A stretch of DNA of 32,000 nucleotides, taken from Desulfocapsa sulfexigens DSM 10523 (lineage in GTDB: Bacteria; Desulfobacterota; Desulfobulbia; Desulfobulbales; Desulfocapsaceae). A model generated the notes under the pieces. That model did not search any database. It saw only the letters and a program-made list of their open reading frames with translations, and had not been told where the DNA came from. A program made the position numbers and the translations under genes. Positions 10,180 to 29,176 of the stretch are shown here, piece by piece. Where the stretch lies: positions 3,330,001 to 3,362,000 of the forward strand of contig NC_020304.1 in NCBI RefSeq assembly GCF_000341395.1, given 5' to 3'. How positions within the stretch are numbered: the first letter of the stretch is position 1; each line of letters opens with the position of its first letter.

Positions 10180-10182
10180 AAT

Positions 10183-10229: not shown

Positions 10230-10258
10230 ATCAATATTGACAAAACTGAGAAAACTCT

Positions 10259-10552: not shown

Positions 10553-10655
10553 AAGAAAGTCTCCTTACATGAATCGTTTTATCATATTACCTCATTGCTG
10601 AAGCAAAGGGCTTATAAGTACAAATGGGTATATATACCTACTACAAAAATTCAAC

Positions 10656-12817: not shown

Positions 12818-13035
12818 GAAACAGCTTAAATGGGACGATATAAATGTTTCCGCTAAAATCAGGAAAAAGTAAGACCTCCAGATTAAACAAATGCCTCGAA
12901 ATCTTCCACTGGTTTCCCTACAAAGCATTGCCAAAGACATAATGATCGTTTAGATTATTGCACTCTTGAATCCGTAAAATCGAAGACACAACATATCATC
13001 TATAGTTATTTTTATTTTGGAGCAAAAGTTATTAT

Positions 13036-13485: not shown

Positions 13486-13767
13486 TTGATATTTTTTTTA
13501 AGTATTCCTTTCTATCATCTCGGCCAATCCCACTCTCATTCACCGCTATTTTTTTTAGCATCAAGTCGATGAACGAGAGTGGCATGCATCTTTATGTTAA
13601 TTTTCATCACTGTCTTTCATTTTTTTTTGAAAATTCCCTGTACATTCGATAAGTGCAACGTATAGAATAAAAAGCAATAATTGATTTGAATTTTAACTTA
13701 CACAAGCGATTGAGGTTTTTATTTTTCCTCAACGACTTCCCTACTTTCTTTTTGGAAGGAGCAGGTT

Positions 13768-16647
13768 ATGCAAATAGAAGATGATGAAATACTCCAGGGT
13801 TTTATAGAAGAATCACTTGAACATCTCGCCGATATTGAAAATGATCTCCTGGCAATTGAAGAAAATGGAGTAGATATTGACGAGGATCTCGTTAACAAGG
13901 TTTTCCGGGCAGCGCATTCCATAAAAGGTGGAGCTGGCTTTATGGGACTGACTGTCATCCAGGATTTATCCCATGTTATGGAAAATGTCCTTGGACTTAT
14001 TCGTAGTAGAAAACTCACCCCAACCCCAGAGATCATTAATGTTCTTCTCCAGGCATCTGACAAACTCAACACTATGATAGAGGATGTCAGTAATTCCAAC
14101 GAGTACGACATTGAAGAGCATCTCACTCCACTCAATGCCATTTATAATGGTGATTTCACGCAGGAAACTCCAGAAGAGCCCTCTACACCTGCTCAGGAAA
14201 CACCCCCTGAACCCGAGCCTCCAGTTCAGGCAGCTCAACCAGAACCACAATCTGAACCTGAGCCCGAGCCAGATCCTGAACCTGAGCCTGAGCCTGTTCC
14301 TGAAGTCAGTGTCGCAGCACCAAGCCCGGAACCAGCCCCAACCCCAAAAGCTACTGTAACTGCTCCACAGCCTCCTGAAACAAAGGCGGCACCACCCAAA
14401 AAAGCAGCTTCCAAGGTGAAAGTTGACACAAGCATCAGAGTTCATGTAAGTCTCCTCGATTCCTTAATGACTCTTGCAGGAGAGCTGGTACTCAGCAGAA
14501 ATCAGCTTCTTCAGACCATCTCTTCCGGAGACTCACAAAGTGCTGAAAGCGTTGGCCAACGAATCGATCTCATCACCTCCGAATTGCAGGAGGCTATCAT
14601 GCTCACGCGAATGCAACCCATCGGGAATGTTTTTGGTAAGTTCCCACGCGTTGTTCGGGACCTTTCAAGTAAACTCAAGAAACAGATTGATCTCACCATT
14701 GTTGGTAAAGATGTAGAACTTGATAAAACAATCATTGAATCTATAAATGACCCACTTACTCATCTTATTCGTAACTCTGTTGATCATGGTATCGAACTCC
14801 CTGAAGACCGTACCAAAGTAGGCAAAAAGGCAACGGGACTCGTAGTCCTGAAAGCGTATCATGCCGCCGGACAGGTTGTTATTGAAATCAGTGATGATGG
14901 TAAGGGTCTAGATGGTGAAGTTCTTGCTGAAACTGCAATACACAAAGGATTGATCACCCCCGAACAGGCCCAACTGATGTCGGACAAGGAAAAGGTCAAC
15001 CTTATCCTTCTGCCTGGTTTCTCCACTGCCAAGGAAGTCACCGATGTTTCCGGTCGTGGCGTTGGAATGGATGTGGTTAAAACCAATCTGGACCAGTTAG
15101 GTGGCCAAGTTGACATCGTTTCTGAAGTGGGTCAGGGAACAACAATTTTCATTAAACTTCCACTGACACTCGCCATTATACCATGCCAGATCATTGTGAC
15201 CGGTGGAGAACGGTATGCCATTCCACAAGTAAACCTTGAGGAACTTCTTCGAATCCCTGCAACACAGGTGAAGGATCGCATTGAACGTGTGGGCAACGCA
15301 GAGGTTGTTCGACTTCGTGGCAACCTTCTGCCTCTTATCAGATTGTCAGATGTTCTCGGCATAAACAGAACATATTTCGATCTGCAGGAAGAAGAGTTCA
15401 AACTGGATCGCAGAGAAAGAATCTCTGACCGTAGGGGGAGGGAGACCCCGCTTGACTCTGCTGAGAAAAATGTTCGCCCGGCAAAAGAAGACAGCTCTGA
15501 AGCTGGAGAACGATCCGTCTCCGATAGACGCTATACCGCTTCCAGTGCCCTTAATATCGTTGTTGTATCAAACGGTACTATGAAATATGGACTTATAGTA
15601 GACAAACTCCAGGATTCAGAAGAAATAGTCATCAAACCACTTGGAAAGCACCTCCAGGGATGCAAGGGGTATGCTGGTGCAACCATTATGGGTGATGGGC
15701 GTATCGCGCTTATCCTCGATGTTGCAAACCTTGCGATTATGGCTGAACTCACGTCAATAGATGGTTCCGACAGGGCAAATGAAGTTGCTCAGGCCGCTGC
15801 GGATCTTGTCAGAGCACAGAAAGACAAGCAGGCCCTCCTGACTTTTAGAAGTTCTGAGCGAGAGCAATTCGCAGTACCACTCAATCAGGTTGAACGAATC
15901 GAGAAAATCAAACGTTCAGACATTGAAGAACTCGGTGGTAAACGTGTCATGCAGTATCGTGGAGGAAGCCTTTCACTAATTGCCGTTGATGATGTTGCCA
16001 TGGTTCAACCCATTGCCGACTGTGACGATCTTCTTGTAATAGTCTTTAATATTGCAAATCAACTCGTCGGACTCCTTGCAATAGGGCCAATAGATGCCAT
16101 TGAAATATCCGTATCCGTTGACGATGTCACCCTCAAGCAACCAGGAGTTATGGGATCCACCATTATCGATCGCCAGACAACTATGCTCATCGATATCTTT
16201 GAAATTGTTGGCGCCCTGTTCCCCGAATGGTTTGAAAATCAGGAAGTTTTTGAAGCTCCTGAAGAGGGAACCGTTCCAACCATCCTTATCGCTGAAGATT
16301 CAAATTTTTTCAGAAACCAGGTCAAGAACTATATGACCGAATCTGGATATGATGTTCTTGAAGGTGAGGATGGGGCCATTGCCTGGGAATTACTGCAGGA
16401 ACATGGCGACGAGGTAACCATCGTCGTCACGGACATTGAAATGCCAAATATGAATGGCTTTGAACTCACTGAGACGATACGCAAAGACTCCCGCTTTTCA
16501 AAAATACCCATTATAGCTCTCACCACACTTGCTGGGGAAGAAGATGTAGCAAAGGGAAAAGCCGTTGGGGTTGACGAATATCATATTAAACTTGATAAAG
16601 AGAAACTGATGGCGTCTGTTCATCACTATGTAAAACAACATCATTAA
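13768..16647 (+). CDS. cheA: Hybrid chemotaxis histidine kinase CheA: Hpt, Pro/Glu-rich linker, dimerisation, HATPase, two CheW-like domains, C-terminal receiver
   Basis: Hpt FRAAHSIKGGAGFMGL; N-box DPLTHLIRNSVDHGIE; G1 DDGKGLD; G2 GRGVGMDVV; two CheW-like regions (about aa 470-680 and 690-830); REC ILIAEDSNFF...VVTDIEMPNMNGFEL. GGAGCAGGTT precedes the ATG. Confidence 0.92.
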   Translation: MQIEDDEILQGFIEESLEHLADIENDLLAIEENGVDIDEDLVNKVFRAAHSIKGGAGFMGLTVIQDLSHVMENVLGLIRSRKLTPTPEIINVLLQASDKLNTMIEDVSNSNEYDIEEHLTPLNAIYNGDFTQETPEEPSTPAQETPPEPEPPVQAAQPEPQSEPEPEPDPEPEPEPVPEVSVAAPSPEPAPTPKATVTAPQPPETKAAPPKKAASKVKVDTSIRVHVSLLDSLMTLAGELVLSRNQLLQTISSGDSQSAESVGQRIDLITSELQEAIMLTRMQPIGNVFGKFPRVVRDLSSKLKKQIDLTIVGKDVELDKTIIESINDPLTHLIRNSVDHGIELPEDRTKVGKKATGLVVLKAYHAAGQVVIEISDDGKGLDGEVLAETAIHKGLITPEQAQLMSDKEKVNLILLPGFSTAKEVTDVSGRGVGMDVVKTNLDQLGGQVDIVSEVGQGTTIFIKLPLTLAIIPCQIIVTGGERYAIPQVNLEELLRIPATQVKDRIERVGNAEVVRLRGNLLPLIRLSDVLGINRTYFDLQEEEFKLDRRERISDRRGRETPLDSAEKNVRPAKEDSSEAGERSVSDRRYTASSALNIVVVSNGTMKYGLIVDKLQDSEEIVIKPLGKHLQGCKGYAGATIMGDGRIALILDVANLAIMAELTSIDGSDRANEVAQAAADLVRAQKDKQALLTFRSSEREQFAVPLNQVERIEKIKRSDIEELGGKRVMQYRGGSLSLIAVDDVAMVQPIADCDDLLVIVFNIANQLVGLLAIGPIDAIEISVSVDDVTLKQPGVMGSTIIDRQTTMLIDIFEIVGALFPEWFENQEVFEAPEEGTVPTILIAEDSNFFRNQVKNYMTESGYDVLEGEDGAIAWELLQEHGDEVTIVVTDIEMPNMNGFELTETIRKDSRFSKIPIIALTTLAGEEDVAKGKAVGVDEYHIKLDKEKLMASVHHYVKQHH
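14254..14301 (+). repeat. Imperfect hexanucleotide (GANCCN)x8 tandem repeat encoding EPEPEPDPEPEPEPVP within the CheA linker
   Basis: Read directly: gaacct gagccc gagcca gatcct gaacct gagcct gagcct gttcct. Confidence 0.9.
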
Positions 16648-16686
16648 AATACTATTTTTATACTTTTCTCATTAGGAGAATGATAC

Positions 16687-17148
16687 ATGGCTAAAGAACA
16701 ACCTGCTGTCAATAAAAAACTTGTTGAACTTGCAACTTTCCTTGTCGGTGATGCACTCTGCGGAATGGATATTCTTAAAATCCAAGAAATCAACAAACTG
16801 ATTGACATGACCACCGTACCCCAGGCACCAAACTATGTTCTTGGAATATTAAATCTCCGAGGTCAAATTATTACCAGTATTGATCTCAGCAAAAAACTCG
16901 GACTTGGAGTTACCAATCTTTCCGATGATCCCAGAAATATCATCGTTAACTCAAAAGGTGAGCATATCGGACTGCTTGTAAAAAAGATAAGCGACGTTGT
17001 TCAGGCCGACACAGATAAGTTTGAACCACCGCCCGCTAACATGGGAGGTATTCAGGGAGATTATTTCACCGGGGTTTACAAAACTGTGGACAAATTGATT
17101 GGCATTCTCGATGTGGAGAAGGTTTTGCGGCTTGATGAGAGAAAATAA
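16687..17148 (+). CDS. cheW: Chemotaxis coupling protein CheW
   Basis: 153 aa single CheW domain (FLVGDALCGMDILKIQEI..., GILNLRGQIITSIDL). AGGAGA RBS. Confidence 0.9.
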   Translation: MAKEQPAVNKKLVELATFLVGDALCGMDILKIQEINKLIDMTTVPQAPNYVLGILNLRGQIITSIDLSKKLGLGVTNLSDDPRNIIVNSKGEHIGLLVKKISDVVQADTDKFEPPPANMGGIQGDYFTGVYKTVDKLIGILDVEKVLRLDERK

Positions 17149-18299
17149 TGCTGATAGGTAAGAAGTTACGAGTTTTAGTTGTTGATGATACCATCGTTTA
17201 CCGAAAAGCAGTTTCTGATGTTCTTGCTGAAATCCCAGGTGTTGAAGTCGTAGGCGTTGCCCATAATGGTAAAATTGCCATGTCCAAGGTTGCAACTCTG
17301 AAGCCCGATTTACTCACACTTGATATTGAGATGCCAGAAATGAATGGCATTGAAGTTTTGAGTGCACTGCAAAGCAACTATCCAAGCATTGGTGCTGTAA
17401 TGGTCTCCACCCTGACTTCAGACGGTGGTGTGATGACTATGAAAGCGCTTGAACTTGGAGCTTTTGATTTTATCCTTAAACCAACTGCCAAGAATCCTGC
17501 CGAAAGCAAAAAACAGCTGAAAGACGCACTCACACCAATTATCAACGAATTTAAGAAATCCAAAAACGCACCTTCCCTTTTACGCAATAAGGGACAATTC
17601 ACCAAAACTCCTGGTACCGTTCTCAGAAAACCACTCAAACCCCTTTCAGCAGCACGCCCTGGCCTCAAATCCGCCGACAACAAACCCGACGTCCCTAAAG
17701 GCAAACTTGCTGTAAGAAGAGGTAAATCAGAAATTATTGCCATTGGAATATCAACTGGTGGCCCTAATGCATTGACTCAGATGCTTCCGATGTTACCTGG
17801 GAATCTTGGCGTTCCCATTGTTATTGTCCAGCATATGCCACCAGTATTTACCAAATCCCTTGCCTCAAGCCTGAATGCAAAATGTGCCCTTCTGGTTAAA
17901 GAGGCTGAAGATCGTGAAGATCTTCAAATCAACACCGTTTATATTGCACCTGGCGGAAAACAGATGAAACTGATTGCCAGTGCCGACGGAATGAACAGAC
18001 AAATAAAAATAACCAACGACCCACCCGAAAACTCTTGCAGGCCATCGGCCGATTACCTTTTTAGATCTGTTGGCGATTATTATGTTGGACGAACAACTGC
18101 TGTTATCATGACAGGTATGGGTTCGGACGGTTCCAAAGGGCTGGAGATCTTAAGTCAGAAAGGTGCCACCATAATAGCTCAGAACGAAGACACCTGTGTA
18201 GTTTTTGGGATGCCAAAAAAACCTATCGAATCTGGAATAGCAGACAGAATTGTCCCCTTGAACAAAATTGCAGACGAAATTGTAAAAAGCGTTCGTTAA
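17148..18299 (+). CDS. cheB: Chemotaxis response-regulator protein-glutamate methylesterase CheB
   Basis: REC (VLVVDD...LDIEMPEMNG), a long basic linker and an esterase domain (IGISTGGPNAL, VQHMP, MTGMGSDG). TAATG overlap with cheW. Confidence 0.9.
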   Translation: MLIGKKLRVLVVDDTIVYRKAVSDVLAEIPGVEVVGVAHNGKIAMSKVATLKPDLLTLDIEMPEMNGIEVLSALQSNYPSIGAVMVSTLTSDGGVMTMKALELGAFDFILKPTAKNPAESKKQLKDALTPIINEFKKSKNAPSLLRNKGQFTKTPGTVLRKPLKPLSAARPGLKSADNKPDVPKGKLAVRRGKSEIIAIGISTGGPNALTQMLPMLPGNLGVPIVIVQHMPPVFTKSLASSLNAKCALLVKEAEDREDLQINTVYIAPGGKQMKLIASADGMNRQIKITNDPPENSCRPSADYLFRSVGDYYVGRTTAVIMTGMGSDGSKGLEILSQKGATIIAQNEDTCVVFGMPKKPIESGIADRIVPLNKIADEIVKSVR

Positions 18300-18333
18300 T
18301 TCTACATTAAAAAATGGCTTTCACTACTAGACA

Positions 18334-19176
18334 ATGCTGAAGATTACGCCTGCAGAGCTTAAGATAATATCTCAATATATCCATGAAATATCGGGTATAT
18401 ATCTTGATCAGAGCAAGTCGTATCTCTTTGAGACAAGGCTTTCCTCCATTGCGGAGGAACTTGGCTGTACATCTTACCAGGAGCTCCACACCAAAGCAAA
18501 AAGAGATCCTGCCAAGGTTATTGAGCGTCAGATTATTGATGCCATATCCACTAATGAAACCCTGTTTTTCAGAGATACTGGCCCATTTGAACTTCTCAAA
18601 CATAAAATATTACCAGAGGTCATTGATCTCCGAGCTCCCAGTTCTCCAAGATTAAAAACTAATATTAAAATATGGAGTGCCGCCTCATCCACTGGTCAGG
18701 AACTTTATTCAGTGGCTATGACTATCAAAGATCTTCTCGGCAACCAGATGAACAATTTCAACCTCAAACTTCTTGGCACAGACATTTCAGATAGTGCTGT
18801 CAAACAGGCAAGCTATGGCAAGTACAACAAATTTGAAATTGAACGTGGTCTTCCACGCCAAACACTTCAAAAACATTTCACCTTATTTGGGGATAGCTGG
18901 AAGATCAAAGATGAACTGCGTGCTATGGTTAATTTCCGGAAATTAAATCTTATGCTCCCCTTTGCAGGTCTTGGTAAATTCGACATTATCCTTTGCCGGA
19001 ATGTTGCCATCTATTTTACTCTTGCCGATCGAAAAAAACTCTTCAACAAATTGGCTGACAGTCTTGCTGATGATGGCTATCTGATAATAGGTTCAACCGA
19101 ATCGCTCACTGGTATCTGTCCTCGCTTTGTACCCAAAAGACATTTGCGGGCTATTTTTTACCAGAAAAAAAATTGA
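18334..19176 (+). CDS. cheR: Chemotaxis protein methyltransferase CheR
   Basis: ISTNETLFFRD, IWSAASSTGQELYSVAM and ILCRNVAIYF motifs. 280 aa. Confidence 0.9.
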   Translation: MLKITPAELKIISQYIHEISGIYLDQSKSYLFETRLSSIAEELGCTSYQELHTKAKRDPAKVIERQIIDAISTNETLFFRDTGPFELLKHKILPEVIDLRAPSSPRLKTNIKIWSAASSTGQELYSVAMTIKDLLGNQMNNFNLKLLGTDISDSAVKQASYGKYNKFEIERGLPRQTLQKHFTLFGDSWKIKDELRAMVNFRKLNLMLPFAGLGKFDIILCRNVAIYFTLADRKKLFNKLADSLADDGYLIIGSTESLTGICPRFVPKRHLRAIFYQKKN

Positions 19177-19185
19177 GGTACTGTG

Positions 19186-19758
19186 ATGAACAACCTGACC
19201 ATACTTGTTGTTGACGACGATCCTGTCATTCGAAAACTTCTTGAACAGCGTTTAATCAAAGAGAACTATGAGGTTCTCCTGGCTGAAGATGGGTATGTAG
19301 GAAACGAAATTCTTTCAAACACTCACGTTGATGTGGTACTTACTGATTTGATGATGCCAGGAGATATTGGTGGGATAGAAGTTCTTGAGTTTGCAAAGGG
19401 ACTTGAACGAAATATCGAAGTAATTCTGATAACAGCACACTCATCAGTCGATACCGCTGTTGAAGCTATGAAAAAAGGAGCTTCCGACTATCTTGAAAAA
19501 CCGATCAATTTTACAGAACTTTTTTTAAGACTTGAAAAAATTTCGACCATGCGCAGTCTTCTACGTAGTGCCGAAGACTTGCGCCAGGCAATGGATGTAA
19601 CCGAGACTACTGCCTCAGAAACCATTCAAAACCTGGAAGTGCTGGCTGACGTTCTCCAGAACAAGATTGATTTAATAGACACAATTTTAACAAATGATGG
19701 ATTATCAGCAGATGACAAAGTTTCAGATGCACTGGATGTCCTTCAGGAAATCAATTAA
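19186..19758 (+). CDS. Stand-alone response-regulator receiver with a C-terminal helical extension of about 70 aa
   Basis: ILVVDDDPVIRKLL...VLTDLMMPG...GASDYLEKPI (NtrC-like REC). The ATG at 19186 is preferred over the GTG at 19183. No recognisable output domain. Confidence 0.8.
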   Translation: MNNLTILVVDDDPVIRKLLEQRLIKENYEVLLAEDGYVGNEILSNTHVDVVLTDLMMPGDIGGIEVLEFAKGLERNIEVILITAHSSVDTAVEAMKKGASDYLEKPINFTELFLRLEKISTMRSLLRSAEDLRQAMDVTETTASETIQNLEVLADVLQNKIDLIDTILTNDGLSADDKVSDALDVLQEIN

Positions 19759-19804: not shown

Positions 19805-21262
19805 TCAGTTCTGCTCAATCATCATCACTGGCTGGTTGTATCCTTTTGTTTCCGAGAAATCCACATCATCCGTCAGGGTGTTTTTAAGTTTTGCATCTGT
19901 CAGATCTGCGTCTTTTAAAATTGCTCTATATAAATCGGCTTTTGACAGATCGGCACCACTGAGGTCGGCACCACTGAAGTTCGCCCCCTTCAGATTCGCT
20001 CCTTCGAGGTCAACCCCCTTAAGAATAGCATTGCTGAAGTTTGCCCCCTCCAGATCTGCACCATCAAGGTTTTCGCCACTAAGATCAACACCTGAAAGCT
20101 CACAGGCATAGCAGCTGTTTTGATCAAGAAGCGTTGCAACGTTTTTCATGACTTCACCTGAAGGTTCTTCCTTTGAAAACACACTAAGCACTGTTTCTAC
20201 AATACCGACTTCCTGCCCCTCGGAAACCACTCCTTCATCACTATTCACTTTTTCATTCTTATTATTCTCAGAAACAGCATCAGAGGAAGGAGATGTCACC
20301 ATATCACCTCCTTTCTCAGGTTCCATATCAACAACCGGAGTAGCAATGCTATTATCCTCCGAAATTTTTTCTTTTTCACTTACTGACACAGATGGAGAAG
20401 CATCTCCCTGAATGACATCCTGCTGGACCTCTTCGGTAAAAGCATTTTCAATCTTTTTTTCTTCTTCTACAGCATCACTTTCAGTAAGACCTTTTTCTTC
20501 TTTTATTTCTTGTTCAATTACTTCTTCTGGAACAATTATTACGTCTTCAACCGTCACGTCTTCAATTCGTACTTCCTGAATTGCTGGAGCAGCCTTTGCT
20601 TCCGGAGCTGCTACACTTTGTCTGGGAAGGGTAGCATCCTCATAGGCCAGTGTTATGTCATCTGAAACATCAGGAACATCGGATACATTATCAGAATCAT
20701 TCTGCTCAACACTTATTGGTACAACAGGTGGTGTTTCCTCGAAATCCCTTCTGCTGGGAATGACAATTTCCTCTGTTTCCGGAACGTTCTTTGGTTTCGC
20801 AGTGTCCTCGACATAAACAGTTTCCTTAACATCCTTCAATCCTTTATCACCTGCGTAGGGGCTTGTTTCAATTATTTCACCATCCATTAAAGCACCATAC
20901 ATATATGCCCCTACCATGGATGCCCCAGTCAAATCAGCGCCTCTTAAGTCAATTTCGGCAAGATCCGCACCATTAAATACCGCCTCACGCAAGTCGCAGT
21001 TTTTTAGATTTGCTCCCGAAAGATTAGTTAATGCCATCTGGGCGCGTGACAAATTGGCTCCCTCCAGGTTTGCACCGGAAAGATCGAGTCTATTAAGGTT
21101 GGCACCACTCAAATCACATTGTGGACAACTTCTAGTTTCAAGAAGTTGTTTTTTATTAGCCTGTACAGTTGTGGAGGAAGAAAGCTCTGCGGCAATACCG
21201 GGTACAGAAAATATCGAACACAAAAAGAGAGCCACACAAAAAAATGATTTGAGACCTGACAT
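19805..21262 (-). CDS. Secreted bipartite pentapeptide-repeat protein with a long acidic central linker
   Basis: AGGAG RBS. Signal peptide FFCVALFLCSIFSVPGIAA/E. The N-terminal block CPQCDLSGANLNRLDLSGANLEGANLSRAQ... and C-terminal block CYACELSGVDLSGENLDGADLEGANFSNA... are A(D/N)LxX repeats, separated by about 230 aa rich in E/D/V/S. Confidence 0.85.
   Translation of the reverse strand: MSGLKSFFCVALFLCSIFSVPGIAAELSSSTTVQANKKQLLETRSCPQCDLSGANLNRLDLSGANLEGANLSRAQMALTNLSGANLKNCDLREAVFNGADLAEIDLRGADLTGASMVGAYMYGALMDGEIIETSPYAGDKGLKDVKETVYVEDTAKPKNVPETEEIVIPSRRDFEETPPVVPISVEQNDSDNVSDVPDVSDDITLAYEDATLPRQSVAAPEAKAAPAIQEVRIEDVTVEDVIIVPEEVIEQEIKEEKGLTESDAVEEEKKIENAFTEEVQQDVIQGDASPSVSVSEKEKISEDNSIATPVVDMEPEKGGDMVTSPSSDAVSENNKNEKVNSDEGVVSEGQEVGIVETVLSVFSKEEPSGEVMKNVATLLDQNSCYACELSGVDLSGENLDGADLEGANFSNAILKGVDLEGANLKGANFSGADLSGADLSKADLYRAILKDADLTDAKLKNTLTDDVDFSETKGYNQPVMMIEQN
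19950..19977. repeat. Two exact tandem copies of TCGGCACCACTGA at a 15-nt period (codes SGADL-SGADL on the minus strand)
   Basis: Copies at 19950-19962 and 19965-19977, read directly. This is the nucleotide-level footprint of the pentapeptide repeat. Confidence 0.9.
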
Positions 21263-21560
21263 GAAAACTCCTGGAATAATCTATTAGTAATATGTTGTCT
21301 ATACAAAGAAGAGGATAGTAAAATATAATTTCTCACAGATACATACTCTATTTTCTTAAAAAGAGTCAAGAATCTACTCCTCAACATTTCCAATGAAAGT
21401 TCCCTCTACCGTGAAAATTAGTCCCATCCTAAAGCTTCAAAGACACCACACCACCTAACAGATTAAAGTTTTAGTCCTTATTTTTATAAAGTTTCGGTCA
21501 CAACCCTTATATGAACAGTTACAAGCAAAACCCCAGTATTACTTTTTGATTAAATAAAAC

Positions 21561-21588
21561 TTGACACTACCGGGATTCGCTGTATTTT
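21561..21588 (+). promoter_or_regulatory. Sigma-70-type promoter candidate for the FeS/cytochrome/NrfD operon
   Basis: TTGACA (21561-21566), 16 nt, TATTTT (21583-21588) with TG just upstream. This implies a leader of about 200 nt before the ATG at 21795. Confidence 0.4.
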
Positions 21589-21600
21589 AGTCGACACTGA

Positions 21601-21625
21601 GTGTTGCAAAAATGTTGCGCAACAC
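21601..21625. promoter_or_regulatory. Composite inverted-repeat element GTGTTGC-N6-GTTGCGCAACAC, a candidate binding site for the local sigma-54 EBP
   Basis: GTGTTGC (21601-21607) and GCAACAC (21619-21625) are reverse complements. It contains the perfect 12-bp palindrome TGTTGCGCAACA (21613-21624). The first 20 nt are 18/20 identical to 27763-27782. Confidence 0.5.
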
Positions 21626-21701
21626 AATTGGGCACACAATTTTACAATGTAATATTAAATACTTAAATGTCACATGTTTTTATATGGCCTTTACGCATAT
21701 G

Positions 21702-21715
21702 AATGAGGCCTCATT
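21702..21715. repeat. Perfect 14-bp palindrome AATGAGGCCTCATT in the operon leader
   Basis: Read directly from the sequence. Confidence 0.9.
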
Positions 21716-21748
21716 TACAATTATAGATTTCCACACAGCTAAACTATC

Positions 21749-21762
21749 GGCTCACGTGAGCC
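21749..21762. repeat. Perfect 14-bp palindrome GGCTCACGTGAGCC, 33 nt upstream of the FeS-protein ATG
   Basis: Read directly from the sequence. Confidence 0.9.
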
Positions 21763-21794
21763 CATCATGTGTTTCAAGTACTTGGAGGAGTAGA

Positions 21795-22559
21795 ATGGAC
21801 ATTAAGAAATTGGAAAAGGAAACAAACGAGGGTGTCGAGACATTACCCTCGGATGAACGTCGTAACTTCCTGAAAATGGGTCTGGCGGTCACCGGAGTTT
21901 TCCTCGGTGGAACCGTACTTTCCCTCACCTCGGTTTCAACAGCCAAAGGAGGAAACAGTGATTCTGTAATACCGGTGGATGGACAATATCCCTACACTAA
22001 ACATTATGGAATGATTATGCGGCAAAACAAATGTGTTGGCTGCGAGAAATGCCTTGATGCATGCAGGGAGACCAACCATGTCCCCAATGAACACGATGCC
22101 TGGCGTACTGACATCCAGGAACGTCTTACTACCATAGATGGTGTTGAGAAACGAGAATTCAGGCCGATCCTCTGCAACCACTGCAATCGCCCCCCCTGCG
22201 TCCGTGTCTGTCCGACCAGAGCAACATACAAAGATCCAGAAACAGGTATTGTTGTGATGGACTACAAAAAATGTATCGGTTGCAAAACCTGTATGGCTGC
22301 CTGTCCATACAATGCCAGATACTTCAGTCATGAGAAGTATGCGATAGACAAGTGCAATTTCTGTCTTGACACCCGCCTTGCTGAAGGCCACAAAGAAACG
22401 GCATGTGCTGCTGCATGTCCTGCAGATGTACGTATTTTCGGTGACATAAAGGACCAAAATACTGAAATATATAAGTTACTGCATGAGCCTGAAAATAAAA
22501 TCTGGGTTATACGACCAGAATGCGGGGCCTTACCTAACGTTTTTTATATGAATGCGTAG
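21795..22559 (+). CDS. Tat-exported 4x[4Fe-4S] ferredoxin-like subunit (NrfC/PsrB/HmcB/DmsB family)
   Basis: GGAGGAG RBS before the ATG at 21795. Twin-arginine signal DERRNFLKMGLAVTGVFLGG. Four cluster motifs: CVGCEKCLDAC, CNHCNRPPCVRVCP, CIGCKTCMAACP and CNFC...CAAACP. The track start at 21612 is an unlikely upstream extension. Confidence 0.88.
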   Translation: MDIKKLEKETNEGVETLPSDERRNFLKMGLAVTGVFLGGTVLSLTSVSTAKGGNSDSVIPVDGQYPYTKHYGMIMRQNKCVGCEKCLDACRETNHVPNEHDAWRTDIQERLTTIDGVEKREFRPILCNHCNRPPCVRVCPTRATYKDPETGIVVMDYKKCIGCKTCMAACPYNARYFSHEKYAIDKCNFCLDTRLAEGHKETACAAACPADVRIFGDIKDQNTEIYKLLHEPENKIWVIRPECGALPNVFYMNA

Positions 22560-22664
22560 GTACCTTACGGCCCAAACAGTCCACTCTCCCATTGAAAATA
22601 GAAACACATTATCATTGTGGGATACTTAACGCATACAACTCAGATTCTAGGAGATTATAACCAA

Positions 22665-23354
22665 ATGAATACACGATTTATTAGCACCGTTGGACTAACT
22701 TTACTGGGTGGAGTTTTCATACTCGCCGGTAATGTTACAGCTGCAGATGAGTATGATGTAAGGGCCTTTGGCCCTAAAAATCCCATCGTCTGGGACACGC
22801 CAACAAAAGTTGTTTTTGACCACCGCACCCATACAGATACGATTGGCCTCGAATGTAGTGCCTGCCATGGTGAAATCTTTGCCATGCAGCGTGGCGTAGC
22901 CCCAAGAACAGGAAAACTGACCATGGCATCACTTGCCGCAGGTCAATTCTGTGGAGCTTGTCATGATGGAGATACCGCATTTGCCACTGATACAAACTGT
23001 ACCGCATGCCATATTCTTCCAGAGGATCCTATCGTCTGGACCAAACCTGTTAAAGCGGTAGTCTTTTATCACAAAGCTCATATAGAAGATTTTGGACTTG
23101 AGTGCGATTCCTGCCATGACGACGCCTTTTCCATGAAAGCTGGTGTCGCAGAGCAATCTCCAAATTTCACAATGAAATCACTCTATGAAGGTCAATACTG
23201 TGGCAAATGTCATGACGGTGAAACAGCCTTTGCCTCAAACACCCTCTGTAACACCTGTCACATTGGAGTTAAAGGGTATGACCGACTGATGGGGATAGAG
23301 CCACATCCTCATACCCAGAGTCATGCGCACGAGAATCAAAATGGTGGTCATTAA
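22665..23354 (+). CDS. Periplasmic hexahaem c-type cytochrome built from two tandem c7/c3-type trihaem domains
   Basis: AGGAG RBS. Signal peptide FISTVGLTLLGGVFILAGNVTA/AD. Six CXXCH motifs (CSACH, CGACH, CTACH, CDSCH, CGKCH, CNTCH) arranged as two homologous units of about 90 aa. His-rich tail EPHPHTQSHAHENQNGGH. Confidence 0.88.
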   Translation: MNTRFISTVGLTLLGGVFILAGNVTAADEYDVRAFGPKNPIVWDTPTKVVFDHRTHTDTIGLECSACHGEIFAMQRGVAPRTGKLTMASLAAGQFCGACHDGDTAFATDTNCTACHILPEDPIVWTKPVKAVVFYHKAHIEDFGLECDSCHDDAFSMKAGVAEQSPNFTMKSLYEGQYCGKCHDGETAFASNTLCNTCHIGVKGYDRLMGIEPHPHTQSHAHENQNGGH

Positions 23355-23453
23355 TTGTATCAGTTTGTTTTCACCAGTTAATGACAGACAACAAAATAAT
23401 ATTTGAAATGCTCAGGCACAGTTCCTGATAAAACAGTATTGCAGGAGATTAAA

Positions 23454-24647
23454 ATGGCGAACAGTTCAGTGACAGATATTTTTGCCCAGACGCAGGATAC
23501 CCGTCTGGCGACTCCCGGGATAAACCGGGCTACGATTTTCTTTCTTATCATTATCGTACTTGGCCTTGGATGCGGTGTTTCATCCTTTATTTTTGGTCAT
23601 GAAAATATGTACAATTACACCCGTGACGTTCCATGGGGGTTGTTGATTTCAACCTATGCCTTCTGGGCAATCACTTCTACCGGTCTCTGTATATATGCTG
23701 CGATTTCCCATCTTTTTGGCGGAACCCGTATGGCTATCGTCAGCAATAGAATGGTATGGATGTCCATTATCTGTATCCTCGGTGCCTTTGCCACCATTGG
23801 TGTTGAAATCGCCAGTCCTCACAGAATGATTATCTATAATATTCTCTCCCCCAACCCAACTTCAAATATCTGGTGGATGGGAACACTCTACGGTATGGCA
23901 GTCGGTTGCATGATAGTAGAATTCTTTGGAATCGTGACGGGCCTTGCACGTATTGCCGTAATTCTTGGTACCATCGGTGCTGTGGCCGAGGTCCTTGCCA
24001 ATAGTTGTCTTGGTGGTGTATTTGCAACCCTTCCTGCCAGGCCTTACTGGTATGGCGGTCAACTTCCCATCTATTTCCTCACCGCTGCATTCCTTTCAGG
24101 CGCAGCAGCCACCGTCCTCTTTAACCATCTGGCTTACAAGGTTCGAGGTATAGAAATGAGTGAAGCTGTTAAAGACGGAGTGCGGAGTGCCGGTAAAGCT
24201 ATGACTCTTGTACTGGTACTTTATTCAGTTGCCACATTCTGGAGATTGATAAGTTACTATGTTGGCGGTGCAGAACTTGGTCGTATTGCAGCGGATGCGT
24301 TAATTTCTGGCCCACTTTCAATTAACTTCTGGGTTATTGAGGTTTGTGTAGGACTCCTTATCCCTCTGATGCTCATCATCCTTTCCAGACTCACCAATAT
24401 CGGAATGATGGCCCTGGCTGGTTTTCTTATTCTCGTAGGACAATTTGTGGCTCGCTATGACCTTGTTGCAGGCGGTCTTCTTGTTCCTGGTACCCTTGGC
24501 TGGGACAATGTTCCAACCTATTTTGACTACGTTCCTTCATTTTTCGAAATGGCTGTCGTTCTGGGAAGTGTTGGAGTAGTCTCTTTTGGATTCCTGATGG
24601 GTGAGAGAGTTTTTGGTAAGATTTTTGACCAGAAAGAACATCACTGA
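23454..24647 (+). CDS. NrfD/PsrC/HmcC-family polytopic quinone-interacting membrane subunit
   Basis: About 397 aa with roughly 8-10 hydrophobic helices and the usual position after an NrfC-like FeS gene. The ATG at 23454 (CAGGAG RBS) is preferred to the TTG at 23403. Confidence 0.75.
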   Translation: MANSSVTDIFAQTQDTRLATPGINRATIFFLIIIVLGLGCGVSSFIFGHENMYNYTRDVPWGLLISTYAFWAITSTGLCIYAAISHLFGGTRMAIVSNRMVWMSIICILGAFATIGVEIASPHRMIIYNILSPNPTSNIWWMGTLYGMAVGCMIVEFFGIVTGLARIAVILGTIGAVAEVLANSCLGGVFATLPARPYWYGGQLPIYFLTAAFLSGAAATVLFNHLAYKVRGIEMSEAVKDGVRSAGKAMTLVLVLYSVATFWRLISYYVGGAELGRIAADALISGPLSINFWVIEVCVGLLIPLMLIILSRLTNIGMMALAGFLILVGQFVARYDLVAGGLLVPGTLGWDNVPTYFDYVPSFFEMAVVLGSVGVVSFGFLMGERVFGKIFDQKEHH

Positions 24648-24671
24648 TAGGCTTGGTTATAGACAATAAAA

Positions 24672-24700
24672 AGGCTGCTCATGTTGTGAGTGGCCTTTTT
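24672..24700 (+). terminator. Probable rho-independent terminator after the NrfD-like gene
   Basis: AGGCTGCTCA-TGTTG-TGAGTGGCCT (imperfect stem with 2 internal mismatches) followed by TTTTT. Confidence 0.5.
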
Positions 24701-24784
24701 ACTTTGTCTTCCCCATAGTTAAAGGCTCCTTCCAAAGAGTTTCCAGCTTTTCAGCATTCCTCCTATTACCTGCTTCTGGTTAAT

Positions 24785-25936
24785 ATGACAAAAAACACTC
24801 CCAAAAAAAAACTGTCCTCCCCTGTTGAACAAAACGGTACATCCTTAGATTCACATATTGCAGGCGGTGGTAATGAACTGTTTCAGGCCATTCAGGATCC
24901 TGTTTTTATTGTCACTCCAGACGGTGTAATAATCGATGCAAATAATGCCGCTCTCAAGGCTGCACGAAAAACCCAAAAAGAAATTGTTGGTAAGGGAATC
25001 TGTACTATTATCCACGGAGGAAGCTTACCTCATATCAAATGCCCCCTTGAGGAGTTCCTCTTAACCACATCCACTTCTCGTGTTGAAGAAACCACCCTTC
25101 CAGGACTTGCAGGAGAGTACCTGCTCACTATTTCACCAATCAAAAACAAAAACGGCACTGTCTGTAAAATACTACTTGTTGCAAGGGAATTGACCAGTGA
25201 CGAAATGAGAAAAGCCGATTCCCTGCGAACTGCACAGATGGCAGCTATCGGCGAACTGGCAGCAGGAGTTGCCCATGAGGTGAACAACCCTATTACCGGA
25301 ATTATCAACTTTGCCCAATTGCTACTTGATGATAGTGAAAAGAATTCACTGCAGGCTGAGCTTCTGGAAAGAATTGTCAACGAAGGGGAGCGAATTGCCT
25401 TGATCATCAAGAACCTTCTCTCATTCGCCCGCGAAAGCGAAAACAACAACGAACTGATTGACATTGAACAGGTCATACGAGACAGCCTTTCACTTGTTGC
25501 ACATCAATTTAAGAAAGATGGTATTAAAATAAAAACAGAATTTTCTTCAAAAGCCTATCGAATTTATGGAAACTTCACTCAATTACAACAGGTAATCCTG
25601 AACTTACTCAGCAATGCCCGTTTTTCCCTCAACGATCGATATCCAAATTCCTCCCCAGAAAAAACCATAGAGATAAGCTGCTACCCTTTTCTAAAAAAAG
25701 AAGGAGAAACTGTTACTCAAATCACAATCAAAGATTCAGGAACCGGTATCCCGCAGGGAATTTTGAATCGCATCTTTGACCCATTCTTCACCACCAAACC
25801 ATCTGGTAAAGGTACTGGACTCGGTCTCAGCATCAGTTATGGAATCATTCAAAATCACGGTGGCTTTATCAAAGTTGATTCAATTATGCATCAATACACA
25901 AAAATGATCATCGAACTGCCCACATCTGGAATCTAA
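24785..25936 (+). CDS. Cytoplasmic PAS-domain sensor histidine kinase
   Basis: No TM segment. PAS ([26 protein letters not shown]...), H-box [23 protein letters not shown]-box LLSNARFS, G-boxes DSGTGI and [11 protein letters not shown]. Confidence 0.88.
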
Positions 25937-27763
25937 ATGGACGATCAAACTCATCAGGAAAAAGATACTCGCATTCTTATTGTGGATGATGAAGCCAGTA
26001 TTCGTCTCACCTTTGAAATGTTTCTTGCAAGAGAAGGCTACGGACCCATCACCACTGCTGCCACTTTCTCCGAAGCAATTGAGGTGATAAACAGCAACAC
26101 ATTTGACCTGATAATCAGCGATATTGTTCTTGAAGGTGAACGGGGAACTGACCTTCTTCGTAAAATTCGTGAGGCAGGAATCGAATGCCCTGTGGTAATG
26201 GTCACCGGATTCCCTAATCTTGATTCCGCAGCAGAGGCTGTCAGACACGGAGCTTTTGATTATATTTCAAAACCAGTCAACAAAGAAACATTACTCAGAT
26301 TTGTACGTCAGGCTTTAAGCCATTGGCAACTCGAACAGGAGAAAAAGAATCTCCTTCAGGAAAATGAAAAATTCAAACGCTACCTGGAAGCAATTTTCAG
26401 TTCCGTTCGCGATGCAATCATTACTATAGATAATGATATGAATATCGTGCAGTTGAATGATACGGCCAAGCGATGGCTGCTTTTCAGTGATTCTGCTGAC
26501 GACATCAATTTAAGGACTAGCAATCGCCTCGACAGTTATAAGAATGAAATGGGCAAAGCCTGCCTTCAGGACGCCAAACAGGTACTAGCAAATAAAATAG
26601 AAGTCCGTGAACACCAGGTCGAGTGTCGCAAACCCGATGGCAACATACGAATCATAAGTTTAAATGCAGCCCCGCTTGAAGATGGGCAGGATGAGTTTAA
26701 CGGTGTTGTTATCGTAGCTCGTGATATCACTCTACCGGAACCAGAGACGGGACCTCATACTCGAAATAAATTCCATGGATATGTTGGTTCAAGTCAGGTA
26801 ATGCAACAGGTATACAATCTTATTGAAAATGTGGGTAAAGTTGATACTGCAGTGCTGATAACTGGAGAATCGGGTACTGGAAAAGAGCTTGCTGCAGAAG
26901 CTTTGCATGCTGAAAGTACCAGGCGCGACATGCCACTTGTCAAAGTTGATTGTGCAGCAATGCCTGAGGAGCTACTGGAAAGCGAACTTTTTGGTCATAT
27001 TAAAGGAGCCTTCACTGGCGCAGAAAAAAATCGAGAAGGGAGATTGTTACAGGCACACAATGGAACACTTTTTCTTGATGAAATTGGTGACGTATCGCCA
27101 CGGATGCAATTACGGCTCCTGAGATTTCTTCAAGAAAAAACTTTTACTCCAGTTGGCCAGGATAATCCCATTGAAGTTGATGTTCGTATCATTGCGGCTA
27201 CCAATGTTAATTTCACAGAAAAAGTAAAGGATGGCAGTTTTCGTGAAGATTTATACTACCGCCTAAAAGTTGTTGAGATTAAACTACCACCGCTTCGAGA
27301 CAGAAAAGGTGGTATCCCAATACTTGTGCACCACTTTCTTTCCATGTTTCGTGAAAAACTGAAGCGCAATATCCATGGAATATCCGATCAAGCCATGGAC
27401 GCATTAACTAAATATTCCTGGCCTGGAAATGTCAGAGAGCTCAGACATGTTATTGAGAGAGCTTGTGTCTTATGTGAAGGTCCAACAATTTCCCTTGAAC
27501 ACTTTGCAGAAGAAATACAAAGGCAGCCCTTGCATCCCCAACAAACACCTCCCACCTCCCTACCACAGGAAGGAAGAGCTGCACTCCCGCCCTACATAAG
27601 TGAACGCGATGAAATCATAGATATACTCAAGAGAGCACGGGGTAACAAATCAAAAGCCGCACGTATGCTAAATATAGATCGTTCAACTCTCTATCGTAAG
27701 ATGCAACGTATCGGCATTGCCAAAGACATTGCCAAAGCACCTGCCCCTAAAAACACCCCATAG
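25937..27763 (+). CDS. Sigma-54-dependent response regulator (REC-PAS-AAA+ EBP-Fis-type HTH)
   Basis: REC (ILIVDDE...LIISDIVLEG), a central PAS, Walker A GESGTGKE, an intact GAFTGA loop, Walker B LFLDEIG, and HTH AARMLNIDRSTLYRKM. It starts immediately after the kinase stop. Confidence 0.92.
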   Translation: MDDQTHQEKDTRILIVDDEASIRLTFEMFLAREGYGPITTAATFSEAIEVINSNTFDLIISDIVLEGERGTDLLRKIREAGIECPVVMVTGFPNLDSAAEAVRHGAFDYISKPVNKETLLRFVRQALSHWQLEQEKKNLLQENEKFKRYLEAIFSSVRDAIITIDNDMNIVQLNDTAKRWLLFSDSADDINLRTSNRLDSYKNEMGKACLQDAKQVLANKIEVREHQVECRKPDGNIRIISLNAAPLEDGQDEFNGVVIVARDITLPEPETGPHTRNKFHGYVGSSQVMQQVYNLIENVGKVDTAVLITGESGTGKELAAEALHAESTRRDMPLVKVDCAAMPEELLESELFGHIKGAFTGAEKNREGRLLQAHNGTLFLDEIGDVSPRMQLRLLRFLQEKTFTPVGQDNPIEVDVRIIAATNVNFTEKVKDGSFREDLYYRLKVVEIKLPPLRDRKGGIPILVHHFLSMFREKLKRNIHGISDQAMDALTKYSWPGNVRELRHVIERACVLCEGPTISLEHFAEEIQRQPLHPQQTPPTSLPQEGRAALPPYISERDEIIDILKRARGNKSKAARMLNIDRSTLYRKMQRIGIAKDIAKAPAPKNTP

Positions 27764-27888
27764 TGTTGCAATAACGTTGCGCGCACGCACGATAGCAACA
27801 CTTTCGCAACACTACCAGCAAAAACGCAACACTCTCGCAACACACCTGCTCTTTCCCCTGTTCATACAAATCCCCCCTCATGCAACAC
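27763..27888. promoter_or_regulatory. Upstream activator array: GTGTTGC / GTTGCGC half-sites followed by five direct GCAACAC copies
   Basis: GTGTTGC 27763-27769 (overlaps the last base of the EBP stop codon) and GTTGCGC 27776-27782. GCAACAC at 27795, 27806, 27826, 27837 and 27882, with 11-bp spacing inside each of the two pairs. The array lies about 80-200 bp upstream of the sigma-54 promoter. Confidence 0.65.
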
Positions 27889-27963: not shown

Positions 27964-27980
27964 TGGCACGCAGCGTGCAT
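27964..27980 (+). promoter_or_regulatory. Sigma-54 (RpoN) promoter TGGCACG-N4-GTGCAT
   Basis: TGGCACGCAGCGTGCAT matches the TGGCACG-N4-TTGCW consensus with exact GG/GC spacing (GG 27965-27966, GC 27977-27978). It lies about 65 nt upstream of the first small ORF. Confidence 0.8.
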
Positions 27981-28043: not shown

Positions 28044-28250
28044 ATGAAAAACACAACTACTATCACAAGAGAAAGAAGCACAACCAATGAAAACACAGCT
28101 CTTGAACTTAATAAGGTTGGTGTTCACGCTGTAACTATCTCTTCTGCAATTATTGGTTGCTGGGCCGTTGCCTGTCTCGCCTCCGGTGTGATCAGCAGTG
28201 GAGGACCTGCAGGTCTTGTCTCTAACTTCATTTCCGCCTTCACTGGATAA
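28044..28250 (+). CDS. Small membrane protein, paralogue 1 of 4 (68 aa), unknown family
   Basis: GGGAGA RBS. Polar T/N/E/R-rich N-terminus, then ...LELNKVGVHAVTISSAIIGCWAVACLASGVISSGGPAGLVSNFISAFTG*. Confidence 0.75.
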   Translation: MKNTTTITRERSTTNENTALELNKVGVHAVTISSAIIGCWAVACLASGVISSGGPAGLVSNFISAFTG

Positions 28251-28292
28251 ACGATAGCCACTCATAACAACCATAGCGCCAGGAGCTTAAAA

Positions 28293-28505
28293 ATGAACTC
28301 TTCTCACTCCGCAGAAACAACCAGTACCCAAGCGAAAAGCCAAGCCAATGCTACCAGCGAAATATCAAAAGTAAGTGTTGGGTTTATAGCCCTCACAGCT
28401 ACAATTATCGGCTGCTGGGCAACGGCAAGTCTTTTTGCAGGTACTATAAGTAGTGGCGGACCGATAGGGCTCATACGAAATCTCATTACAGCCATTACTG
28501 GTTAA
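28293..28505 (+). CDS. Small membrane protein, paralogue 2 of 4 (70 aa)
   Basis: AGGAG RBS. ...SEISKVSVGFIALTATIIGCWATASLFAGTISSGGPIGLIRNLITAITG*. By manual alignment 22/34 identical to paralogue 1 over the C-terminal part. Confidence 0.75.
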   Translation: MNSSHSAETTSTQAKSQANATSEISKVSVGFIALTATIIGCWATASLFAGTISSGGPIGLIRNLITAITG

Positions 28506-28550
28506 TATAGGTCTAAATTAAAATTCCTGACACTATAAGAGGATCATCTC

Positions 28551-28775
28551 ATGGAAGACAAAGCAATCACAAAAGAAATCACTAAAACTACTGCTACAGT
28601 TCATGAAATTGAACACACCGATAGCGAATTATATAAAGTTGGCATGTACACAACAGCAGCATTTGCTGCAATTGTCGGAATATGGGGTCTGGTATGCCTT
28701 TCAAGTGCCATCCTTGAGAATGGTGCCCCTGTTGAAATGTTGAAAAATCTGTACCACGCCATTACCGGCGCCTAA
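28551..28775 (+). CDS. Small membrane protein, paralogue 3 of 4 (74 aa)
   Basis: AGAGGA RBS. ...TDSELYKVGMYTTAAFAAIVGIWGLVCLSSAILENGAPVEMLKNLYHAITGA*. Confidence 0.75.
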   Translation: MEDKAITKEITKTTATVHEIEHTDSELYKVGMYTTAAFAAIVGIWGLVCLSSAILENGAPVEMLKNLYHAITGA

Positions 28776-28847
28776 TGACCTCTTCAACGAATTTTTTTAA
28801 TAATGTGCAGCAAAACACCTATAAAAATATTATAAAGGAATATCACT

Positions 28848-29063
28848 ATGAGCAACGTAGATACCAAACAAACTGTCAAAACAACCGTACACGAAGCCGT
28901 TAACACTGACAGCGAACTCTACAAAGTCGGAACTGTTGTAACCGCAGCCTTTGCTGGTGGGATTGGACTCTGGGCTGTTATCTGTCTCTCTTCAGCCTTC
29001 ATGTCAGAAGGCCCCGTGGCTCTGTTAAAAAGCCTTTTTGGAGCGGTATCCGGAACAATGTAG
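28848..29063 (+). CDS. Small membrane protein, paralogue 4 of 4 (71 aa)
   Basis: AAGGAA RBS. ...TDSELYKVGTVVTAAFAGGIGLWAVICLSSAFMSEGPVALLKSLFGAVSGTM*. By manual alignment about 29/51 identical to paralogue 3. Confidence 0.75.
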   Translation: MSNVDTKQTVKTTVHEAVNTDSELYKVGTVVTAAFAGGIGLWAVICLSSAFMSEGPVALLKSLFGAVSGTM

Positions 29064-29116
29064 CATGTGTATGTAAAAATATGCTAAGCTCTCTTAGCTT
29101 CAAAGATATTTTAAAA

Positions 29117-29148
29117 GCCAGGGATATTTGTATCCCTGGCTTTTTTTT
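29117..29148 (+). terminator. Strong rho-independent terminator closing the small-protein operon
   Basis: GCCAGGGATA-TTTG-TATCCCTGGC (perfect 10-bp stem) followed by T8. A smaller hairpin GCTAAG-CTCT-CTTAGC lies at 29083-29098. Confidence 0.88.
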
Positions 29149-29176
29149 GACTTATACCTGCATATACCTGTATAAT
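29147..29176 (+). promoter_or_regulatory. Sigma-70-type promoter candidate for the ftsH paralogue (TTGACT-18 nt-TATAAT)
   Basis: TTGACT at 29147-29152 and a perfect TATAAT at 29171-29176. The spacer contains the direct repeat TATACCTG x2. Confidence 0.5.

Follow-up and report, generated by a model that had tools for sequence, protein, structure and literature searches.

This analysis concerns a short DNA element at positions 21601-21625 of a 32,000-nucleotide stretch of the genome of Desulfocapsa sulfexigens DSM 10523 (NC_020304.1, positions 3,330,001 to 3,362,000). The whole stretch is referred to as the window, and all coordinates are counted from its first nucleotide. The element lies between a predicted sigma-70-type promoter, P1, and an operon encoding an iron-sulfur (FeS) protein, a cytochrome, and an NrfD-family membrane protein. 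It resembles an upstream activating sequence (UAS), or enhancer, located behind the gene of an enhancer-binding protein (EBP), a sigma-54 activator, and is a candidate operator of this EBP. The features of the locus are the following:

21561-21566, plus strand: -35 hexamer TTGACA of P1
21583-21588, plus strand: -10 hexamer TATTTT of P1, with the transcription start predicted near 21594-21596
21601-21625, no strand assigned: candidate operator array with half-sites TGTTGC (21602-07), TGTTGC (21613-18), and GCAACA (21619-24)
21630-21637, no strand assigned: degenerate fourth half-site GGGCACAC, recognized from the alignment of orthologues
21795-22559, plus strand: Tat-signal 4Fe-4S protein like NrfC, DsrO, and TtrB (Pfam Fer4_11 and related models), first gene of the operon
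22617-23354, plus strand: periplasmic cytochrome with two c7-type triheme domains and six CxxCH motifs
23403-24647, plus strand: NrfD-family (DsrP/HmcC-like) membrane quinone-interacting subunit
24667-24701, plus strand: intrinsic terminator (-26 kcal/mol, z = -6.3, followed by a T-run) closing the FeS/cytochrome/NrfD unit
24785-25936, plus strand: soluble PAS histidine kinase (Pfam)
25937-27763, plus strand: EBP with the domain order REC-PAS-AAA+ (sigma-54 interaction)-Fis-type helix-turn-helix (HTH8), and with GAFTGA, Walker A/B, and receiver Asp intact
27763-27843, no strand assigned: predicted enhancer of three tandem half-site pairs, the starts of which are about 31 bp apart
27882-27888, minus strand: extra single half-site GCAACAC
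27964-27979, plus strand: predicted sigma-54 promoter TGGCACGCAGCGTGCA, the best of the region
28044-29063, plus strand: four paralogous genes of small proteins (68-74 amino acids) with a hydrophobic and probably membrane-spanning stretch, followed by a terminator at 29113-29144
29254-31125, plus strand: FtsH paralogue

The sequences at 21601-21620 (GTGTTGCAAAAATGTTGCGC) and 27763-27782 (GTGTTGCAATAACGTTGCGC) are identical at 18 of 20 positions. The heptamer GCAACAC at 21619-21625 completes the former to GTGTTGC-N11-GCAACAC with an inner 12-bp palindrome, TGTTGCGCAACA. All of this agrees with the description in the initial annotation of the window. Half-sites 1 and 2 of the array are direct copies positioned 11 bp apart, and half-site 3 is inverted and abuts half-site 2. 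The enhancer is formed by the pairs TGTTGC/cGTTGC (27764, 27775), GCAACA twice (27795, 27806), and GCAACA twice again (27826, 27837). The phasing of the pairs by about 31 bp places all three of them on one face of the helix, which is the layout expected of an enhancer that would assemble three dimers. The element at the FeS promoter has the same architecture, TGTTGC-N5-TGTnGC abutted by GCAACA(-N5-GnnACA). It thus contains multiple phased sites matching the enhancer of the EBP, namely three to four half-sites of the TGTnGC type that are paired at the same 11-bp distance. Because the enhancer is laid out in repeated half-site pairs, we read the predicted recognition unit as two TGTnGC half-sites in tandem at a distance of 11 bp.

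The comparison set consisted of 80 related loci that were fetched with the NrfD protein, and the neighbouring genes were mapped in each of them. The loci closest to the window are from metagenome-assembled Desulfocapsa genomes. About 20 loci have readable sequence 3' of an adjacent orthologous EBP gene, and the EBPs of these loci are 65-87% identical. Several orthologues have a clear GCAACAC or GCnACAC at the place of the fourth half-site, 11 bp past half-site 3, as in the operator of locus L023, which reads GTGTTGC-ATAG-TTGTCGC abutted by GCAACAC-TTTA-GCAACAC. The fourth half-site is weak or degenerate in the clade of the window itself, so that the operator extends weakly to approximately 21637.

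The 18/20 identity by itself is weak evidence, and its significance comes from its context. An all-against-all count of direct 20-mer pairs found five matches at 18/20 in the window, compared with zero to two in Markov shuffles. Tandem coding repeats account for two of the five, and two others appear to be chance matches; these, 16789/25445 and 358/25521, have no evident meaning. Since chance-looking pairs of equal quality exist within 32 kb, the raw identity was rejected as an argument. The heptamer GTGTTGC is present in 11 copies in the window, against 3.7 expected, and eight of the 11 are inside two short intergenic stretches. The pair unit TGTTGC-N5-TGTTGC, with one mismatch allowed, has 100 matches in the 1.12 Mb formed by the window and the 80 loci, where about 4.8 would be expected. 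Forty-nine of the matches are located just 3' of an EBP gene and 29 upstream of an FeS gene. The remaining ones are mostly upstream of FeS genes at shifted offsets or within the small-gene cluster of some genomes. Scatter in unrelated contexts, as of a dispersed repeat of the REP or MITE kind, was not found across the 1.12 Mb. The possibility raised in the initial annotation that the motif could be common background was therefore not borne out in this sequence, as 78 of the 100 matches fall into two contexts.

The promoter-like site TTGACA-16-TATTTT had been noted in the initial annotation, and the consensus scan recovered it at 21561-21588. In the alignment of the upstream regions of 25 orthologues, the flanks are randomised and three conserved blocks remain: CTTGAC at -35, TGTAYTTT at -10, and GTGTTGCAwAAATGTnGCGCAACAC at the operator. 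The -35 hexamer reads TTGAC[A/T] in 24 of 24 orthologous loci, and the -10 hexamer reads TAYTTT in most. In all 24 loci, the spacer of P1 is exactly 16 nt long and the operator starts 11-14 nt past the -10 hexamer. Half-site 1 is the same in 24-25 of the 25 orthologues, half-site 2 is invariant at five of its six positions, and half-site 3 is somewhat weaker (16-25 of 25 conserved per position). If the start is taken about 7 nt past the -10 hexamer, the operator would extend from approximately +6 to +31. It abuts the predicted start of a sigma-70-type promoter, which is a feature of NtrC-type repressor operators.

The region between the element and the FeS gene was scanned for sigma-54 promoters with the pattern GG-N10-GC. 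The initial annotation had reported none in 21626-21794, and the wider scan found none in 21263-21795 on either strand. Among 30 loci, no GG-N10-GC is conserved in the 300 bp that precede the FeS gene, and the majority of them lack this pattern altogether. The array at 21601-21625 therefore lacks the downstream GG-N10-GC driving the regulated gene that characterises a sigma-54 enhancer. Its sister element at 27763-27843 has such a promoter at 27964-27979, where a sigma-54 promoter had already been recognized. The sister element is conserved in about 20 orthologous loci, in which the EBP stop codon is followed by TGTTGC-N5-TGTTGC and two GCAACA-N5-GCAACA pairs. The promoter on the enhancer side, for which the pattern TGGCA-N8-[T/G]GC was used in orthologues, was detected in 12 of the 21 other orthologous-EBP loci that are readable there and in both loci with a paralogous EBP. 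It reads TGGCACG-N4-rTGCA in most loci where it was detected. The distance from the enhancer to the sigma-54 promoter is about 70-210 bp in those orthologues and 120-200 bp in the window. The small genes are the only genes clearly behind the sigma-54 promoter.

Of the 25 loci in which an orthologous EBP is adjacent, 23 have the TGTTGC form of the site, with up to two mismatches, before the FeS gene, as opposed to seven of the 30 loci lacking such an EBP (Fisher p = 3e-7, without correction for phylogeny). The proposal in the initial annotation that one EBP acts at two loci is thus partly supported, in silico, by the shared architecture of the two elements, the conserved adjacency to P1, the missing sigma-54 promoter, and the co-occurrence of the site with the EBP. 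The inverted repeat GTGTTGC-N11-GCAACAC as the recognition unit did not stand.

The strong terminator behind the NrfD gene of the window has counterparts in most orthologous loci, where a hairpin and a T-run follow NrfD. Therefore, the FeS/cytochrome/NrfD unit is separate from the kinase and EBP genes, and action of the EBP at the 21601 site would be cross-regulation and not simple autoregulation. Autoregulation through a transcript that spans the FeS operon and the kinase and EBP genes was considered and rejected because of this conserved terminator, past which read-through would be minor at most.

Two loci provide a natural experiment. In L002 (EBP 9376-11160) and L008 (EBP 8632-10398), the EBP gene directly follows NrfD, and no kinase, enhancer, sigma-54 promoter, small genes, or FtsH were found in the 4.7-6 kb 3' of the EBP gene. 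The receiver Asp of this EBP is replaced (IISD to IICGN), and GAFTGA has become GAFPGA, a combination unique to L002 and L008 among the 120 closest homologues. The AAA+ and HTH domains are retained, and so is the operator. For the EBP gene as a whole, dN/dS between L002 and L008 is 0.20, with 0.32 for the receiver domain and 0.15-0.18 for the AAA+ and C-terminal portions; the gene is under purifying selection and not decaying. Locus L081 is the closest canonical relative and contains the full module of kinase, EBP, small genes, and FtsH. Its FeS and NrfD proteins are 93-96% identical to those of L002 and L008, and its cytochrome is 87-90% identical. The operator of L002 and L008 is unchanged relative to L081, and the operator sequences of L008 and L081 are identical. 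Because a lineage without the sigma-54 arm retains the DNA-binding protein together with its operator, L002 and L008 are the best evidence here for a sigma-54-independent function of the EBP at the site, as far as gene content and sequence can indicate it. EBP-family regulators that act without sigma-54 include Rhodobacter capsulatus NtrC, TyrR, and HupR. The EBP of L002 and L008 is similar to them in combining AAA+ and HTH domains with an altered GAFPGA loop and no phospho-acceptor Asp, and it seems to retain only a sigma-70-type target. R. capsulatus NtrC, TyrR, and HupR mostly bind upstream of promoters and activate, whereas the Desulfocapsa site lies 3' of the -10 hexamer.

Based on these comparisons, a mechanism of regulation can be proposed. 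Dimers of the EBP would bind the operator at approximately +6 to +31 of P1. The bound EBP would hinder RNA polymerase in the formation of the open complex or in promoter escape. The FeS/cytochrome/NrfD operon would consequently be repressed independently of sigma-54, and the same EBP would activate the four small genes from its enhancer. In our view, the site is very probably a true and conserved operator of the EBP family. Binding is suggested by the identity of the half-sites with those of the enhancer and by the co-occurrence with the EBP. Given binding, the operator would probably repress the sigma-70 promoter; repression is proposed because the operator lies just past the predicted sigma-70 promoter and is not followed by a sigma-54 promoter. 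The position of the transcription start is likewise predicted. Repression may or may not require phosphorylation, on which a reciprocal switch of the two promoters by one signal, as suggested in the initial annotation, would depend. Taken together, we favour, with moderate confidence, the explanation that 21601-21625 is the operator of the EBP encoded 4.3 kb downstream, which represses the FeS/hexahaem-cytochrome/NrfD operon without sigma-54.

Several points weigh against this explanation. The sign of regulation was deduced solely from the position of the operator relative to the predicted promoter. The TATAAT-type box at 21716-21721 might be the main promoter, in which case the operator would be positioned 5' of it. 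Dimers of Fis-type HTH domains usually bind inverted repeats, and direct repeats of half-sites are unusual. The co-occurrence of the site with the EBP may reflect only one or a few evolutionary events. Loci L041 and L042, the EBP of which is 65% identical, carry the EBP without the site. In turn, loci without the EBP frequently show, about 20 nt past their own TATAAT-like -10 box, tandem sites of a related kind: TGTGGC-N5-TGTGGC or TGTTGC-N5-TGTAGC. Therefore, the regulator need not be the product of the adjacent gene. An operator just past the transcription start seems to be an old feature of the FeS operon, to judge from these loci, and its regulator may be encoded elsewhere in some genomes.

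The leader between the operator and the FeS gene contains additional conserved segments. The box at 21716-21721 is TACAAT in the window and TATAAT in most orthologues. It is adjoined by the dyad AATGAGGCCTCATT at 21702-21715, about 93 nt before the FeS start codon. The arms AATGA/TCATT of the dyad are kept in distant loci with a different central four bases, for example in AATGAGCCGTCATT, and in loci without an adjacent EBP a similar AATGAATTTTCATT is positioned directly upstream of the promoter. The dyad probably binds a further regulator or serves as an RNA element. A hairpin-like segment with the consensus TTTGAACAC...GTGTTTCAA is conserved at 21745-21785, just before the ribosome-binding site of the FeS gene, and contains the 14-bp palindrome GGCTCACGTGAGCC in the window. 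Locus L017 may carry compensating changes in this hairpin, and the fold of the window sequence is not significant (z = -0.5).

Some loci differ in the arrangement or identity of the regulatory module. In L016 and L031, a paralogous module of kinase, EBP, and FtsH (about 50% identical) is located a few kilobases downstream of NrfD. Its EBP (52% identical; L016 13248-15050, L031 12736-14544) is accompanied by an enhancer with TGTGGC/GCCACA half-sites. These half-sites match the variant tandem sites after the FeS promoter in loci without an orthologous EBP. L016 keeps an operator of the TGTTGC type, though its neighbouring EBP is the paralogue. In L039, the module of kinase, EBP, small genes, and FtsH is inverted and divergent from the FeS operon (FeS 6363-7121; minus-strand kinase 5612-4551 and EBP 4543-2747), yet the conserved CTTGACAC promoter is followed by a half-site pair, GCAGCA-N5-GCAACA, there as well.

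Alternative explanations of the element differ in how well they accommodate these observations. Positive modulation of the sigma-70 promoter by the EBP or another factor is unlikely but the most probable of the alternatives, together with the variant in which the TATAAT box at 21716-21721 is the true promoter and the site is at approximately -110. The sign of regulation is not readable from sequence and is the main uncertainty here, the box adjoins the conserved dyad in a leader of about 200 nt, and EBP relatives without GAFTGA, such as Rhodobacter NtrC and TyrR, act at sigma-70 promoters. However, the hexamers and the 16-nt spacer of P1 are conserved, and the operator keeps its distance of 11-14 nt from the -10 hexamer in all 24 loci, a constraint that coupling of the operator to P1 would be expected to impose. 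In the alignment, as read by eye, no -35 hexamer is conserved 16-18 nt from the TATAAT box, and activators that bind from +6 to +31 are rare. It is rather improbable that the operator, although genuine, is bound by a paralogous EBP or an unrelated factor, with the adjacent EBP recognising only its own enhancer. This would explain the related tandem sites after the promoters of loci without an EBP, the TGTGGC/GCCACA enhancer half-sites of the paralogous EBP in L016 and L031, and the TGTTGC-type operator beside the paralogue in L016. It fits poorly with the consensus and 11-bp pairing shared by operator and enhancer half-sites in loci with an orthologous EBP, and with the lineage of L002 and L008, which has retained exactly the HTH-bearing EBP and the operator and lost the rest.

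A stem-loop GUGUUGC...GCAACAC at the 5' end of the transcript, affecting mRNA stability or translation and resembling the enhancer only incidentally, is very unlikely. The 27-nt core does fold into a 7-bp stem (-9.3 kcal/mol, z = -4.4), which would be located at the extreme 5' end of the predicted transcript. Nevertheless, all seven pairs are kept in only 11 of 25 orthologues, and the T-C (seven loci) and C-A (seven loci) mismatches are uncompensated; no compensatory changes of the kind expected of a structured 5'-UTR (untranslated region) RNA were found across the 25 orthologues. Half-site 2, which would form the loop, shows stronger conservation than the 3' arm, and the enhancer half-sites recur as direct pairs that are unable to form hairpins. 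A search of 21400-21900 against Rfam at a permissive threshold gave no match. Activation of a sigma-54 promoter of the FeS operon by the EBP from the element, as from a classical enhancer, is less probable still. The element has the sequence of a genuine enhancer, two-component systems usually activate the adjacent operon, and a TGG is conserved about 60 bp downstream of the element. This TGG is not followed by GC at the required spacing in any orthologue, according to the alignment read by eye. The scan of 21263-21795 found no sigma-54 promoter, that of the 300 bp upstream regions of the 30 loci gave no conserved one, and the element persists in L002 and L008, the EBP of which has GAFPGA and no receiver Asp. 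The probability that the 18/20 match is a chance similarity or a functionless copy of a dispersed repeat is almost negligible. The window does contain two other apparently meaningless pairs of this quality, but the conserved footprint, invariant geometry, restricted distribution, and co-occurrence with the EBP argue against chance.

The NCBIfam models of DsrO and NrfC match the FeS protein below their cut-offs. The small proteins share the motif ...KVG...G.WA..CL.SG.ISSGGP.GL... and have no match in Pfam or NCBIfam, with no deeper homology search made. The copy number of their genes varies among genomes (three in L081), and some genomes carry a further half-site cluster inside the small-gene array. 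The terminator behind the small genes of the window has a 14-bp stem (29113-29144) and is directly followed by a near-consensus sigma-70 promoter at 29147-29176 (TTGACT-18-TATAAT, 11/12). The FtsH paralogue is therefore probably transcribed from a promoter of its own, rather than simply belonging to the sigma-54 unit. In L081, a 301-residue protein without a Pfam match and a second cytochrome-c7/NrfD/FeS set follow 3' of FtsH (12999-17219). The second set is 36-52% identical to the first, and the window ends before the corresponding place.

Upstream of the FeS operon, the window contains a chemotaxis cluster, CheA-CheW-CheB-CheR with a single-domain response regulator (13768-19758), and a gene on the minus strand for a 485-residue pentapeptide-repeat protein (19805-21262). 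Their synteny extends to many of the related loci but not to all. Control of the divergent pentapeptide-repeat gene was rejected as the function of the site: the site and P1 persist without that gene in L005, L006, L010, L024, and L068, and the scan of the window found no sigma-54 promoter on the minus strand.

The proposed regulatory logic is, by analogy, that of NtrC (NRI), which exerts negative control over the sigma-70 promoters glnAp1 and glnLp of the glnALG operon of E. coli (PMC3870243). In both cases, one EBP response regulator would use the same kind of site to activate a sigma-54 promoter and repress a sigma-70 promoter, the repression in Desulfocapsa being proposed from sequence. 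The repressed and activated promoters of E. coli serve the same operon and provide autoregulation, whereas the presumed target in Desulfocapsa is a separate respiratory operon with its own terminator. Furthermore, the Desulfocapsa site is located 3' of the -10 hexamer and is composed of direct half-site pairs, while the sites of NtrC lie over the promoter and are 17-bp dyads.

Sites of an EBP without sigma-54 promoters have also been described in the same broad group of sulfur-metabolising bacteria. The comparative-genomics reconstruction of Kazakov et al. 2015 placed EBP sites of Desulfovibrio vulgaris Hildenborough upstream of nine operons without sigma-54 promoters, and the cited section gives no mechanism for these nine sites (PMC4641369). 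In its make-up, the regulated module resembles the DsrOhPh-tetrahaem locus of cable bacteria and other Desulfobulbales, which also combines a DsrO-like FeS protein, an NrfD/DsrP-like membrane subunit, and a periplasmic multihaem cytochrome, and for which a link between the quinone pool and the periplasm was proposed (PMC13047784). The Desulfocapsa cytochrome has six CxxCH motifs in two c7-type domains, in contrast to the four haems of the DsrOhPh locus. The relevant section of that report mentions no regulation, and sigma-54 and FtsH do not occur in its text.

If confirmed, the operator would represent a clean and comparatively well-supported non-enterobacterial case of an EBP that works at two kinds of promoter, activating one through sigma-54 and repressing an ordinary one. 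It would tie a signal sensed by cytoplasmic PAS domains to an uncharacterised quinone-cytochrome module of the sulfur-disproportionating Desulfocapsa, provide a handle on when this module is used, and help to explain the EBP sites of Desulfovibrio without sigma-54 promoters. The most novel part is the lineage of L002 and L008, in which the EBP looks like it is en route to a plain repressor. We speculate, tentatively and as a possibility that we would not yet call probable, that the EBP family has a conserved second, sigma-54-free role as a repressor at the sigma-70 promoter of the DsrO/DsrP-like quinone-cytochrome module, and that the protein in L002 and L008 has turned into a dedicated regulator of that promoter. 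The canonical EBP and the GAFPGA-containing, Asp-less EBP form a natural pair for studying the change from activator to repressor. If the speculation is true, L002 and L008 would document the evolution of an enhancer-binding activator into a classical repressor, with L081 representing the unmodified state for comparison.

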